Shown: positions 53,801 through 59,800 of the stretch, in pieces
How positions within the stretch are numbered: the stretch's first letter is position 1
Layout: each line of letters begins with the position of its first letter
Source of the DNA: Sulfurihydrogenibium sp.
GTDB taxonomy: Bacteria > Aquificota > Aquificia > Aquificales > Hydrogenothermaceae
Assembly (NCBI GenBank): GCA_037442825.1
Contig: JBBIPN010000001.1
Span: 12,884 to 76,883, forward strand
Length of the DNA stretch: 64,000 nt
Direction of reading: 5' to 3'
Made by a program: the position numbers

Positions 53801-56800
53801 CATCGTAGTTCCCAATAGTGCAAGCTGTATTCTCTTTTAGTGAAAGGTCTTTAAGTTTGAGAATCATTCTTCCTCTTTTGAAAAGATATCAAAAGCTCTA
53901 ACAGTTACACTGTATTTAAAACCTCTATTTTTCAAAAACTTTGCTATATTTTCAAATGTTTTCTCCTTTTTAAAAGACCTCTTAAGAAGATTTAAAGCTG
54001 CCGTCAACTCATCTTCTTCTGATATTTCTACAGACAATATGCCTTTTCTATATAATTTCTGTTTTAGATTAACACTACTCTTACCTTTTAAGAGAGCTTT
54101 CTCTTTATATCTCTCTAAAAGTTTTTCATCATTTAAAAGATTTTTCTCTTTCAAATCATTTATAACTTCTTGAACTACAGCTAAGCTAAAACCTTTTAAT
54201 AAAAGTTTCTGCTTTAACTCTTGTTCAAAGTAGTCTTTTTTAGATAGGAGTCTATAAGCATAAGATTTTACTTTTTCTTCAGAACATATCTGTTTCTTCA
54301 TCCATTGTACCTATACCTTTAATCTTTAGCTCAACATCAGAAGGATTAGTTGCATAAAGTAAAGCATTTTCATAAGTTATAAGTCCTTTATTGTAAAGGT
54401 CTATAACAGCTTGGTCAAAGGTTTGCATTCCGTAATGTTTCTTTCCTCTTTCCATATAGTCTGTTATTTCAAAAAGTCTATCTGGATCTTTAATACATTC
54501 TGTAATAGCACCAGTATTTATCAGTATCTCTACAGCTGGAACAACTCCACTTCCATCTTTTCTTGGTATTAACCTCTGAGATATTACAGCCTTTAAAACT
54601 GCTGCTAATAATATTCTCAAGTGGTTCTGTTCTTCAGCTGGAAACATATTTATTATTCTGCTTATAGTATCTTTTGCATCTTGAGTATGAAGGGTTGATA
54701 AAACAAAGTGACCTGTTTCTGCAGCCCTTAAAGCTGTTTGTATGGTCTCTAAATCCCTCATCTCTCCAACCATAACTACATCTGGGTCCTCACGTAAAGC
54801 TGCTCTAAGTCCAGTATTAAAATCTTTTGTATCTAAACTTACCTCTCTTTGTACTATGTATGCTTTTTTGTCTCTAAAAATATACTCTATAGGATCTTCA
54901 ATTGTGATTATCGTTTCTTCAAAATTTTCATTTCTATAATCTAACATAGATGCAAGTGTAGTAGATTTACCAGAACCTGTCGGACCAGTAACAAGGACTA
55001 ACCCTCTTTGTTCCTCAGCAATAGTTTTTATAATATCAGGCAACATTAATGTTTCCATTTTTGGAATTTCTGTTTTTAAAACCCTCATAGCTATAGCATA
55101 GGTACCCCTTTGCCTGTATATATTTACCCTAAACCTACTTACACTAGAAATAGAGTAAGATATATCTACTTCTCCGTTTTTAATTAACTCAGCTTTTTTA
55201 TTTTCAGATTTTAAAAGAATTTTTGACATAAAATTTGTCATATCTTCTACAGAAATATTATTATATTCATCAAAGGTATGTAATAACGTTTTTATCCTAA
55301 CCTTTGGTTTTGATCCTACTTTTAGGTGTATGTCTGAAGCACCTAATTGAACAGCTTTTGTAAGGATTTCATCAAGATCCATTTAATAACCTCCCTTTTA
55401 TAGTATTTTCTATTTCTTGAGTAATTTCTGGATTTTGTTTTAACAACTCTCTTGCTTTTTCTTTACCTTGTCCAAGTTTTATCTCTTCTCCATTTTCTGG
55501 CTTATAAGAGTACCAAGCTCCACTTTTCTTTATTAACCCAATCTCCTCACCTAAATCTAAAATCTCTCCTTCCTTAGATATTCCTTCACCATATATAACA
55601 TCAAATTCTGCTTCTTTAAACGGTGGTGCAAGTTTATTTTTTACAACCTTTACTTTTACTCTACTACCTACCTTTTCACCATCTGTTTTTATATCACTCT
55701 TTCTAACTTCCATCCTCATATCTGCAAAAAACTTTAAAGCTCTTCCCCCAGTTGTAGTTTCTGGGTTTCCAAACATAACACCTACTTTTTCCCTAACTTG
55801 GTTGATCAGTATAAGTGCAGTATTACTTTTATTTACAGCTCCTTTTAGGACTCTCATAGCTTTTGACATAAGCCTTGCGTGTAATCCTACATTTGAGTCT
55901 TCTATATCTCCTTCTATCTCTGCCTTTGGTACTAATGCAGCTACAGAGTCTATTACAATTACATCAACAGCATTACTTCTTACCAATGTTTCCGCTATTT
56001 CAATAGCTTGTTCTCCATAGTCTGGTTGTGAAATAAGCAGGTCATCAAGATTAACACCTATAGCTTTTGCATACTTAGGGTCAAAAGCATGCTCTGCATC
56101 TATAAATACAGCTTTGCCACCTCTTTTTTGAGCTTCTGCAATTATATGCAATGTTAGAGTAGTTTTACCTGAAGATTCTGGACCATATATCTCAACAACT
56201 CTACCTTTTGGAATACCTCCAATACCTGTAGCTATATCTAAAGATAAAGAACCTGTTGGTATAGCTTCTACAGACTTAATTCCTTCCGAAGACAATGGCA
56301 TTAAAGAACCTTTACCATATCTTTTTTCAATCTGTAAAATAGCGCTTTCAAGAGCTTTTTTCTTTGCTTCTAAATTATCCATATATAAAAACACCTCCTA
56401 AAATTAACTCTCACCAACAACTCTTGGCACTATAAAAAAGCTTCCTTCTGATTCAGGAGCATTTTTTAAAGCCTCTTCATTCATCAAAGATTCTTTTGGA
56501 ATGTCTTCTCTATCTACCCTTTCCTGAATTTCTATTTCATAAAAAGGTTCAACATTTTCTACATTTAACTCATTTAATTTATCAATAAAATTTAATATAT
56601 CATTAAACTGTTTTGAAAAAATTTCAATCTCTTCTTCCTTTAATTTTAACTTTGCCAAATTAGCTACATTCTTTACTGTTTCTTTGTCTACCATTTTCTC
56701 ACCTCTTTATGATTTCTATCATTTTAATTATATATTAATGTTGTTATATTATAATTAACTTATTTCGCATCCCCCTCCCTCCCCCTCCATACCTGGTCGG

Positions 56801-59800
56801 GATCTATCCCGACCCTTTTTTATATTTTGACAACTTCATTTTTATAAACTTTAAAGCTTCTACAGGTTTATCTATCAAATCTTCCCTACCATACTTTATT
56901 AAAACATTTTTTTGTTTTTCTGACAACTGATAATTTTTCATTGATTCTTGTTTAGCTTTATTTATCCATTTTGTTAAAAGCTTTTTATCAGAAAGTTCTT
57001 TATCTGTTATTTTCATACCTGTTTTTTCTGCAAGAACTAAAGCATACTCTATTTGTTTAGGAGAAGGTGTTTTTTCAGAATGTTCTTCTATAAACGCTTT
57101 TAGTTTTTCTGGGTTATCTAAGATATTATCTATGGTTTTATTGTGTTTTTTGGCTAAATCTTTTGCATAGTGAAGCATCTTTTTTGTAATTTTTGGTTTT
57201 TCAGTTGATATAGATTTTTGATGTAGCTCTTTAACAAACTCCTTCCAATCTTTCTTATTATCCTCCACTTTATCTAAAAACTCTTCCATTTTTTTTGTGA
57301 AGTTGTAATCTACAACCCAACTAAATCTATTGTTTAGATACTCAATAAGATGAAATCCATTTTCTGTAGGTCTTAAACTACCATTTTCTTTAACGACATA
57401 ACCTCTATCTTTTATTGTTTTAATAATAGTCGCATACGTTGAAGGTCTACCTATACCAAGTTCTTCTAATCTTTTTACCAAACTACCTTCTGTATATCTC
57501 GCAGGTGGTTTTGTCCATTTTTCCTCTAAATTTAGTTTTTCAATACTTAATTTATCTTTTCCTTTTATGGAAGGAAGTTTTTGATTATCTTCATTTTCTT
57601 CTTCATCAAACTCATAAACAGCTTTGTAACCTTTAAATACCAATACAGAACCTGAAGCTTTAAATTTATAACCTTTTATACTTAAAAGGATATTTGTTCT
57701 TTCAAATATAGCATCAGCCATCTGTGATGCTAATGTTCTTTCATATATAATTTTTAAAAGTTTAAAATGGTCTTCTGTTAATCCTTTTTCTTTAATAAGT
57801 TTTCTCTGTTTTTCAAGGTTTACAAAATTTGTTATTCTTATAGCTTCATGGGCATCTGCTTGGGTATTTTTAGATCTATAGACTCTTACACTCTCTGGTA
57901 GATAATCTTTACCATACTCTCTATATATTAAATCTCTAATGTTTAAAACCGCTTTCTCACTTATCCTTGTACTATCTGTTCTATGATATGTTATAAACCC
58001 ATTTTCAAATAGATCTTGGGCTAAAAGCATCGTCTTCTCTGGTGCAAATCTATAAACTGAACTTGCAGCTTGTTGTAATGTTGATGTTGTAAATGGTGGT
58101 TTTGGTGATTGTTTTACTTTTTTTCTTTCTACTTTTTCAACTACTGCTATATTTTCACCTTTAATATCATCATAAACAGCTGTTGCTTCTTCTTTGTCTT
58201 CTATCTTCTGCTTTTCATATACAGCTATAAACATTATATTATCTTTATTTAAAACAATCGTTATTACATAGTAAGGTGTTGGTTTAAAATTTTTTATCTC
58301 TAACTCTCTTTCAACAATAAGTCTTACTGCTGGTGATTGAACTCTACCTACACTAAACCTTCCTCCAATCTCTTTTGATGCCATCGGTGATAAAATATAA
58401 CCTACTATCCTATCTCCAACTCTTCTACCTAAAAAAGCATTAAACAACCCTTTGTTTGTTTTTTCAAAATCTAAAGCATTTTTTATCTTTTCTTTAACAT
58501 GTTCTTTTGTTATTTCATGAAACTCTGCTCTTTTTATAGATGCTGCTTTCTTTTTTAACTCCTCATACATAAAATAGCCTATAGCATATCCTTCTCTATC
58601 AGGGTCTGTTGCTATGTAAACTTCTGATTTATCTGCAAGTTTTTTTATCTCTGATAGTAATTTTTTATGATTTTGAGATTTTATAATAAATGTCGGCTCA
58701 TAACTATTTAAATCTACTCCCATCTCATCTTCTGGTAAATCCTTAAAATGTCCTACCGTTGCTTTTACTATAAAGTCTTTCCCAAGAAAGTGAGAAATCT
58801 CTTTTGCTTTTTTTGGAGACTCTACAATAACTATCTTTTTTGTTTCCAAATTTAAACCTCACTTATAGATTTTAATGCTTCTATCCTTTGAATACACGTT
58901 GCACACTCACCACAAGGTGGTTCGGTACCTTTATAACAAGAATAAGTTTTATCAAAAGGAACATTTAGTTTTTTACCAAGTTTAGCAATATCTGACTTAC
59001 TCATACCTAAAAACGGAGTGTATATTTTTATTCTATTTTTCCTTTTTGCAACCATTAAAGAACTTGCATTTATAGCTGCTTCTACAGCTGAAGCAAACTC
59101 AGCCCTACAATCTGGATAAGGTGAATCTAGAGAATGTATAGCTATACCTATATTTTCAATCTCATATACATCTGCAAATGATGCTGCTACTGATAAAAAT
59201 ATAAGGTTTCTCATTGGAACTGTCGTAATTGGTGGTTGATCTGTATAACTTTCAGAAGGAACTTCTATACTCTCATCAGTTAATGCACTTTTTCCTATTG
59301 CAGATAAATGTGGAATCTCTGCTATAAAATGCTCTTTTACTTCTGCTATTTTTGCAAGTTCCTTTGCATATTTTAACTCTACACGATGTTTTTGTCTATA
59401 ATCAAAAGATATAGCATAAACGTCTTTAAACATTTCTTTAGCAAGCCAAAGAAGCGTAGCACTATCCATTCCACCAGATAAAAGGATAAGAATATTCTCT
59501 TTTTCTAACATCTCTTCCTCAAAAAATTAAGTATATCTTATAATTATATATCATTTCTTTTTGGAGTTAAGTTATGTATGATTTAATTATTATAGGAACA
59601 GGGCCTGGTGGATTTGAAGCAATATTAACAAGCTTAAGAAAAAAGATAAATATCGCCGTGGTAGAAAAAAGTAAATTTGGTGGAAACTGTTTAAATAGAG
59701 CATGTATCCCAACAAAATATTTAAGAAGCGGAGCTTATCAGATTGAAAAACTATCTAAATTAAAAAATTATGGTGTTGATATAAAAGATTTTTCTATTGA

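Follow-up and report, generated by a model that had tools for sequence, protein, structure and literature searches.

A predicted C-rich RNA gene between gatC and topA of Sulfurihydrogenibium sp. and its relatives across the Aquificota

What does the C-rich island between gatC and topA of a Sulfurihydrogenibium genome of 28.9% G+C encode, and on what might its product act? An earlier note, which covered a 64,000-nucleotide stretch of this genome (the window), had read the island (RNA A) and a second one on contig C41 (RNA B) as trans-acting small RNAs that mask strong GGAGG ribosome-binding sites with three unpaired CCTCC motifs each. The sequence and fold of both elements were reproduced, with recomputed energies of -14.6 kcal/mol for A and -13.2 kcal/mol for B. 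The 5' part of RNA A was unpaired and its fold was matched in stability by none of 200 shuffles (z -4.5), with an unpaired probability of at least 0.96 for the core at 70 C. All three CCTCC motifs are free in RNA A, but the third one of RNA B lies in the hairpin stem, which leaves just two. Among the C-richest 25-nt windows of the genome the two tracts rank second and third, the first being intragenic. No Rfam match was found over RNA A (positions 55000-59000 scanned) or in seven family loci that span all four forms distinguished below. We predict from these features (Table 1) a non-coding RNA gene of form A.

Table 1. Positions of RNA A, its promoter elements and its neighbours in the window, and of RNA B on contig C41
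Feature	Position	Strand	Basis or remark
Predicted RNA A, ~65 nt	56757..56821	+	5' end inferred from -10 box
Unpaired C-rich core (seed), 24 nt	56767..56790	+	three CCTCC, at 56774, 56778 and 56784
8-bp terminator hairpin of RNA A	56795..56814	+	folding; pairing kept across sequences
U tail (T run) of RNA A	56816..56821	+	read from sequence
Palindrome ATGAT-N4-ATCAT, predicted Crp/Fnr-family activator site	56709..56722	.	centred at -41.5
Conserved -10 hexamer TATATT, without -35 consensus	56745..56750	+	TAnnnT 22 nt past box, 32/35 loci
gatC, divergent neighbour, recA next	56404..56694	-	TIGR00135 above cut-off
topA, convergent neighbour; stop codon inside RNA A hairpin loop here	56804..58849	-	TIGR01051 above cut-off
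RNA B	C41:7604-7666	+	fold -13.2 kcal/mol

Comparison among genomes gave a common build of promoter, unpaired C-rich core, U/A-rich linker, hairpin and U tail, all on the C strand. Pair types vary among the 27 distinct sequences of the RNA A hairpin and the pairing is retained; in an analysis of hairpin covariation, 160 of 160 cells were paired with compensatory change at five of the eight pairs, and the hairpins of form A, form B and the tRNA-linked form gave the same picture. The free C tract measures 21-33 nt across the forms. Form A occurred in 35 of 50 Hydrogenothermaceae genomes (core 18-mer exact in 29, with one mismatch in 1 and with small variants in five more) and, within the genus, in 9 of 9 genomes rather than the 7 of 9 counted before. 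The family is also wider than the Hydrogenothermaceae to which the earlier note assigned it, because a core 13-mer was present in 135 of 178 Aquificota genomes, including Aquificaceae and Desulfurobacteriaceae; 36 of 40 such loci read individually were genuine. The Aquificaceae copies are free-standing sigma-70 genes in tandem or other gene contexts, with a short U tail (UUUCU) and a promoter on the C strand in 39 of 45 cases (opposite strand 4, shuffled 2.8), and the Desulfurobacteriaceae copies follow tRNA-Glu. A model built from the Aquificaceae copies only found the RNA A locus as its sole match in this genome (26 bits, E 0.0016). One further family (f3) encodes Hfq in 8 of 8 genomes, yet no clear RNA copy was found there, nor was a copy found in genus g9; a model search of five genomes of families f3 and f4 gave a best E of 0.036, with matches mostly within reading frames. 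The scan beyond the Aquificota used the Aquificaceae-shaped pattern only, so that more distant relatives may exist in other phyla, and a single match in viral contigs, without hairpin or box, was judged to be chance. The reversed long pattern, for which no matches had been claimed, gave three in 2 of 50 genomes when rerun, and since reversed short words occur within the RNA itself, a reversed short pattern is not a valid null. The best explanation of these sequence comparisons is that RNA A belongs, as one of several paralogues, to a family of trans-acting sRNAs of 60-115 nt that extends across the Aquificota.

The earlier note had placed the -10 box of RNA A at TATAAT (56750-56755) and had overlooked an activator site upstream. 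TAnnnT is kept at 56745-56750 in 32 of 35 loci versus 17 of 35 at the former position, which puts the RNA start near 56757. An ATGA-N6-TCAT box was present in all 34 aligned form-A loci, with TATGA and TCATT invariant and the centre at -41.5; a sigma-70 -35/-10 pair was found in just 4 of 34. By the -41.5 rule for class II promoters and the consensus sites of CRP and FNR, a TGA-N6-TCA palindrome with that centre and without a -35 consensus has the form of a class II Crp/Fnr-dependent promoter. Between the genes of this genome the box occurs 11 times (0.5 +/- 0.6 in 30 shuffles). The box also stands before ahpC (27 of 29 loci read; in 24 of the 27 a -10 box follows at equal spacing) and before further redox genes; RNA A thus appears, from promoter sequence, to be co-activated with oxidative-stress genes by a class II Crp/Fnr promoter. 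The genome holds two Crp/Fnr genes and three Fur-family genes. Because TTGAT boxes flank the Crp/Fnr gene adjoining norB, the other, family-wide Crp/Fnr protein is left as the predicted cognate regulator, a candidate by elimination; its orthologue was present in 48 of 50 genomes, and all 30 orthologues read have the helix TVET(A/T)IR and a single invariant Cys. A sigma-54 promoter (GG-N10-GC) fitted only one of six form-A loci inspected by eye and was rejected. Fur boxes have N1/N7 spacing, which the fixed N4 spacing does not fit, and other spacings gave 0-3 intergenic copies.

RNA B differs in its promoter. It starts 14 nt past the stop codon of a NapH-like gene (g01023) in this genus, and instead of the -10 box claimed before it, no -35/-10 promoter was found in any of six loci of the genus. 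The sequence marks RNA B in this genome as a promoter-less 3' UTR, which bears out the doubt that the earlier note itself had raised. Outside this genus, form B had its own promoter in 17 of 18 loci from five other genera (control 0).

With its own promoter or processing, an intrinsic terminator with U tail, a conserved single-stranded seed and an encoded Hfq, the family has several features of the sRNA class, and we consider it moderately probable that RNA A is an Hfq-type trans-acting sRNA that pairs with G-extended Shine-Dalgarno sites. The family-wide Crp/Fnr-type regulator would bind ATGA-N6-TCAT at -41.5 and activate RNA A alongside ahpC and other redox genes; Hfq would grip the RNA by its U-rich parts and leave the C tract free, so that the repeated CCCUCC and C5 words could pair with ribosome-binding sites carrying extra G (GGAGGG, GGGG), whose match to the RNA would exceed their match to the 16S tail. 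Nearly all pairs would be G-C, suiting a high growth temperature, and translation would halt and the mRNA decay, the genome having a gene for RNase E/G. The B and Aquificaceae forms would be constitutive sigma-70 paralogues, or products of a 3' UTR or tRNA trailer, with the same seed. Of the original proposal, a conserved, independently transcribed C-strand RNA is well supported: it has its own types of promoter, its terminators covary, its neighbours change, and Hfq is encoded. RNA B of this genome, lacking a promoter, departs from that proposal. Masking of ribosome-binding sites would more likely be directed at G-extended sites than at every strong GGAGG, which precedes 351 of 1391 genes here, and GGAGGG start sites number 16 among 1394 genes.

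Judged from conservation, contig C21 holds the best candidate target, an operon for a Psr/Phs-like molybdoenzyme. All 28 orthologues read keep GGAGGG ahead of the NrfD subunit, where it falls on a synonymous position of a Gly codon in the preceding gene, and all 27 read keep it ahead of the Mo subunit, the operon having been chosen after the fact and its orthologues being kin; the candidate duplex has 6 bp and ~-7.7 kcal/mol at 65 C. This Mo enzyme was not found in 90 Aquificaceae genomes, so the operon cannot explain the phylum-wide core. GGAGGG-ATG is also more frequent in three other genera, with 123, 67 and 84 matches (reversed 63, 23 and 14); of 23 orthologues in this genome, from the first 30 loci of each genus, 5 likewise carried GGAGGG. 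For ccoO, GGAGGG was not kept in three of three orthologues read, and the start regions of nrdJ, accB and ahpC were only partly G-extended (6/17, 11/26 and 10/28 within the best 5%); gatC reached the best 5% in 0 of 16 cases and two other neighbours in 1 of 15 each.

No long perfect target was found, an 8-mer complement to the core occurs in only three start regions, and target ranking in a single genome gave no outlier. That no mRNA target stands out strongly would suit a decoy whose unstructured C tract sequesters a protein that binds poly(C), for example Rho, which is encoded in this genome, or a KH/S1 protein; established sponge RNAs, CsrB among them, typically repeat short motifs along unpaired sequence. 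We nevertheless regard a decoy as unlikely, because the letter-exact CCCUCCC words that mirror the Shine-Dalgarno core exceed what a protein reading composition would need, and Rho rut sites, C-rich as they are, are usually longer than the free tract.

Action in cis, with A serving as antisense to topA-gatC-recA read-through and as terminator at the end of topA, and B being no more than 3' UTR and terminator of the NapH-like gene, is in our judgment improbable. Form A lies mostly between topA and gatC, its downstream gene is always convergent, and past the hairpin the minus strand lacks a U tract, which makes the read-through likely; the position of RNA B in this genus also agrees. The sequence of a cis-antisense RNA, however, need not be fixed, whereas the core does not vary from genus to genus, and core and box persist where the flanks change, beside ruvC (loci L032-33) or other genes (L036-37, L043, L050). 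The promoters of form B in other genera and the contexts of the Aquificaceae copies likewise speak against action in cis.

Transcripts of Aquifex aeolicus bear on the functional strand; one of them, Aae-65, was reportedly described by Willkomm in 2005. Table 3 of PMC4227106 gives n68 (Aae-65) and n75 as orphan transcripts without motif, family or function, and assigns n68 reads to the strand of a permease gene; n75 had similar sense and antisense signals and its polarity was left open. Named Aquifex records have two copies of the family, one immediately ahead of the AEC permease (PMC5607611 describes aq_1392 as an AEC transporter) and the other flanked by thrS and a metallophosphoesterase gene. 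Their synteny, length and G+C make these copies probably n68/Aae-65 and n75, so that expression of Aquifex homologues of RNA A is probable. A function of the G-rich strand, as a DNA or antisense-RNA G-quadruplex modulated by promoter and hairpin, would draw on that antisense signal and on the four runs of at least three G with short loops opposite the Aquificaceae and tRNA-linked forms. We give it little credence: there are just three such runs in form A, the orientation of promoters, U tails and tRNA linkage is that of the C strand throughout, and in the named loci the permease-gene strand of n68 coincides with the C strand. Pairing with G-rich rRNA, as folding chaperone or general ribosome modulator, is less probable still, since the stretches on the rRNA contig that gave duplexes of ~-16 kcal/mol at 65 C (stronger than any start region, in a calculation without control) are paired in the mature molecule, thermophile rRNA being G-rich, and control by a stress activator fits poorly.

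Most hot-spring and vent bacteria of the Aquificota carry a gene for a short, uncatalogued C-rich RNA, which probably silences certain genes by occupying the ribosome docking site. The claim to a first sRNA family of this phylum holds for family and mechanism, not for first sighting, because n68 and n75 are probably earlier-published members; these orphans gain a probable identity. The structure of Aquifex Hfq has been solved. Hfq is encoded in 173 of 178 Aquificota genomes, most of which keep two or three paralogues, and the Aquifex protein binds U6 and A18, not C6 (PMC5379935). In the literature searched we found no described partner sRNA, and the family offers short, defined candidates, which makes base-pairing regulation at high temperature directly testable. 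The analysis also brings to light, in microaerophiles of vents and hot springs, a predicted redox regulon of the Crp/Fnr type that has a new box. More tentatively, and with considerable doubt, an ancestral sRNA retained by most of this deep-branching thermophile phylum may read G-extended ribosome-binding sites as a class, and in the Hydrogenothermaceae a duplicate of it may have become the non-coding arm of an oxidative-stress regulon, as yet undescribed, under a cysteine-sensing Crp/Fnr protein and the box ATGA-N6-TCAT, which turns AhpC and superoxide reductase on and oxygen-sensitive Mo/Fe-S respiratory complexes off; Aquificota Hfq would then have its first identified client RNA.

Crp/Fnr-activated class II sRNAs with seed and terminator are familiar from E. 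coli (FnrS, CyaR, RybB) and Campylobacterota (RepG, CJnc190), where C/U-rich seeds that sit in loops or lack C-run repeats read G-rich leaders; the likeness to RNA A lies in these general features, with no sequence relation found. RoxS/RsaE of Bacillus and Staphylococcus (PMC5419742) has C-rich regions that pair with G-rich leaders, redox-linked control and redox targets, and RNA A has an unpaired C-rich tract for which pairing with mRNA is predicted. RoxS/RsaE is controlled by ResDE and Rex, is generally Hfq-independent and can block RNase J1 (PMC5419742), whereas RNA A has a Crp/Fnr-type class II promoter in a genome that encodes Hfq and RNase E/G, with RNase J below cut-off; Rfam scans of the locus and the seven loci gave no RsaE/RoxS match. 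The Cuckoo RNAs (CcsR1-4) of the Alphaproteobacteria resemble the family in their paralogues and copies of an anti-Shine-Dalgarno-like C-rich motif, and are Hfq-bound, stress-induced, in part cut from 3' UTRs, and dampen respiratory electron flow (PMC4615179, PMC8034643). They belong to a different phylum, have a different promoter, share no Rfam match with the family and carry CCUCCUCCC in the loops of 2-4 adjacent hairpins (PMC4615179), whereas RNA A presents its CCCUCCC and C5 words in an open 5' tract ahead of a single terminator hairpin.

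RNA A, a predicted plus-strand C-rich RNA of about 65 nt, has a gene, strand, fold and promoter geometry, and a box in common with ahpC, that are shown by sequence comparison. Folding gave -14.6 kcal/mol (z -4.5) with an open 5' part, and the C-rich tract was still open at 70 C. In a genome (G000) with a G+C content of 28.9%, the tracts of RNA A and of a second element, RNA B (C41:7604-7666), are the two C-richest intergenic windows. RNA B was largely as the earlier note described, except that the third of its CCTCC motifs, taken there as unpaired, sits in the stem. Rfam returned no match for RNA A or the family copies searched. 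In G000, as in one congener, topA enters the RNA A hairpin and ends in its loop (56804-56806); in other genomes its stop lies at or ahead of the T run.

Features at the RNA A locus (window coordinates)
Feature	Position	Strand	Remark
gatC	56404-56694	minus	borders the spacer with RNA A
RNA A C-rich tract	56767-56790	plus	from sequence; in the gatC-topA spacer
RNA A hairpin, 8 bp	56795-56814	plus	followed by six T
topA	56804-58849	minus	borders the spacer on the other side

Of 50 Hydrogenothermaceae genomes, 30 contain the 18-mer core of this form (form A), 29 of them without a mismatch, among them 9/9 within the Sulfurihydrogenibium genus of G000, and small core variants in five further genomes (L116-118, L120, L289) raised the total to 35/50; the core queries used found no form A in genera g3 and g9. 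Its neighbours are mostly gatC and topA, with ruvC or other genes at 6/30 loci. Among 27 distinct hairpin sequences, folded one by one because automatic alignment was out of register within the stem, the sequence varies and the pairs are kept. Genus g9, which has neither form A nor form B, carries a C-rich tract right behind a 346-aa exported gene (L024, L295).

Upstream of form A, the palindromic box TATGA-N6-TCATT was present at 34/34 loci independent of the neighbour gene, and a TAnnnT hexamer lay 22 nt past it at 32/35 loci (runner-up offsets, 17/35 and 12/35), which places the box centre at -41.5; the -35 consensus was absent from these promoters (4/34 loci versus 3 in the control). Class II Crp/Fnr promoters have their activator site centred at -41.5. 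Judged by its sequence, the RNA A promoter is built in this way, which puts the predicted RNA start near 56757, and RNA A is probably activated by a Crp/Fnr-type regulator.

The intergenic DNA of G000 (124 kb; gene starts from our own simple caller, 1406 genes) contains 11 copies of the box, of which 10 are distinct and one stems from a duplicated contig end, versus 0.5 +/- 0.6 in 30 shuffles. Its neighbours are ahpC, genes for a desulfoferrodoxin-type superoxide reductase and SOD and for a ferredoxin-thioredoxin reductase beta chain, those for Mrp/ApbC and class II ribonucleotide reductase, nuoA and the norB region, and also cytochromes c and an ArsR gene. Of 29 Hydrogenothermaceae loci inspected, 27 have the box ahead of ahpC, and in 24 of these 27 a -10 box follows at an offset of 22 or 23; ahead of nrdJ the box was seen in only 4/17 genomes. 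The nrdJ start and promoter occur twice, at contig ends C8:1-260 and C51:7850-8121, an assembly overlap or duplication. G000 has two Crp/Fnr genes, one of which adjoins norB and is flanked by classical TTGAT boxes. The other is present in 48/50 genomes, and its product carries TVET(A/T)IR, whose FNR counterpart is VETISR, and one invariant cysteine at 30/30 loci read. We infer that this second protein acts at the box with its cysteine as redox sensor; it is the putative regulator of RNA A, with redox state as the putative signal. Locus C7:25314-26018 (L196) and the intergenic box sites would form an apparently undescribed Crp/Fnr-family redox regulon whose candidate regulator is family-wide.

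RNA B lies behind the NapH-like gene in the genus of G000 and one g6 genome, with a promoter in 0/6; in other genera TTGACA-17-TATATT stands 10-14 nt ahead of the tract (17/18 with promoter; control, 0), mostly behind cbb3 oxidase genes. Loop letters are kept while stems vary in the hairpins of RNA B (GCAAN) and of Aquificaceae copies (GCCC/GCCA), and may mark a protein or tertiary contact.

Beyond Hydrogenothermaceae, the 13-mer CCCCCTCCCTCCC was found in 135/178 Aquificota genomes: G000, 39/49 other Hydrogenothermaceae, 68/90 Aquificaceae, 25/28 Desulfurobacteriaceae, and 2/8 and 0/2 in families f3 and f4. Inspection of 40 matches showed 36 to be genuine and four to lie inside reading frames; a sister word gave 10 members among 20 loci read. 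Aquificaceae copies have a sigma-70 promoter at 39/45 named loci (four more were too short) and a purine leader able to fold back onto part of the C tract; in 20 chosen sequences their hairpin was paired in 160/160 cells, with compensatory change in 5/8 pairs. The fold-back element, a GGGAG leader in Aquificaceae and a GGAG linker in Desulfurobacteriaceae, can pair with part of the C tract and is possibly a built-in switch. In Desulfurobacteriaceae, 10/13 loci were members, all preceded by tRNA-Glu. Searched against all GTDB species, an Aquificaceae-shaped pattern matched 51 stretches, 48 labelled Aquificota, one with the same sequence labelled Acidobacteria, and two by chance; the Acidobacteria stretch (L169) is a typical Aquificaceae copy with its neighbour gene and is probably mislabelled. 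A model built only from Aquificaceae copies had RNA A as its single match in G000 and did not find RNA B. At L067, L068, L076 and L077, in two Aquificaceae genera, the C-rich word of the family and a T run, with no hairpin, follow just past the stop of one 153-156-aa gene, perhaps a further 3' UTR-derived form.

Named Aquifex records hold two copies. Copy 2 lies between thrS (presumably aq_1667 in A. aeolicus) and a metallophosphoesterase gene (L143, L147). Copy 1, predicted at 115-117 nt with G+C 0.50-0.51, ends about 19 nt ahead of an AEC permease (L161, L165, L170) whose A. aeolicus orthologue, P0042, is 63% identical. Table 3 of PMC4227106 places n68 (Aae-65) at aq_1392/permease, an AEC transporter in a table of PMC5607611, with a length of 137 nt, a G+C content of 0.50 and read numbers of up to 476/756; it places n75 (98 nt, northern blot, polarity left open) at aq_1666. 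These entries suggest that n68 and, less surely, n75 belong to the family.

Hfq is present in 173/178 Aquificota genomes; neither Hfq nor the motif was found in f4, and f3 encodes Hfq with no clear copy among genomes searched. One f3 locus, L287 (C tract, hairpin with CCUCC loop, TTTGTAA; E 0.53; within a 215-codon open frame), is possibly a divergent copy. Most Aquificota have two Hfq paralogues, Desulfurobacteriaceae three and the G000 assembly one. According to PMC5379935, Aquifex Hfq binds U6 and A18, not C6, which fits a free C-rich seed. In G000 a gene for Rho and a partial one for RNase E/G were found; RNase J had no match over the cut-off.

As to targets, GGAGG precedes 351/1391 genes in G000, where G-extended sites are rare (GGAGGG 16, GGGAGG 16, GGGGG 18); an 8-mer complementary to the RNA A core occurs in only three start regions, and 37/1394 are predicted to bind the core at 65 C with <= -7.5 kcal/mol and with a lead of 2 kcal/mol or more over the 16S tail. 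For two top candidates chosen after the fact and compared across Hydrogenothermaceae, with the orthologues being kin, GGAGGG was kept in 27/27 start regions read (30 loci) of a TAT-exported Psr/Phs-like Mo enzyme and in 28/28 of the NrfD gene ahead of it; in the latter the final G falls on a third codon position that is free to vary. The extra G stands opposite A in the 16S tail versus C in RNA A. Against this target reading count, besides the late choice and the kinship, a predicted duplex of 6 bp, a higher GGAGGG background in other genera, weaker conservation at nrdJ, accB and ccoO, and the lack of any match to the molybdoenzyme query in Aquificaceae (0/90). In Hydrogenothermaceae the query matched in 40/50. 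The respiratory cluster at C21:6173-15561 (L366) encodes the query, a 1071-aa TAT molybdoenzyme below every NCBIfam cut-off.

That a real RNA is made from the C strand is very highly probable, and we lean modestly towards Hfq-assisted pairing of it with G-rich start regions, in which the Hfq dependence, the base pairing and the targets would all be as proposed here. Less probably, the RNA could be a protein decoy or act in cis, the G strand could be the functional one, or the RNA could pair with rRNA.

The openly readable literature, exclusive of the PMC4227106 supplement, gave no account of the RNA family, motif or box. By the respective membership tests the Aquificota RNA is neither a cuckoo/CcsR nor a RoxS/RsaE RNA, yet its working mode would be like that of both, as PMC4615179 and PMC8034643 (cuckoo/CcsR) and PMC5419742 (RoxS/RsaE) describe them.
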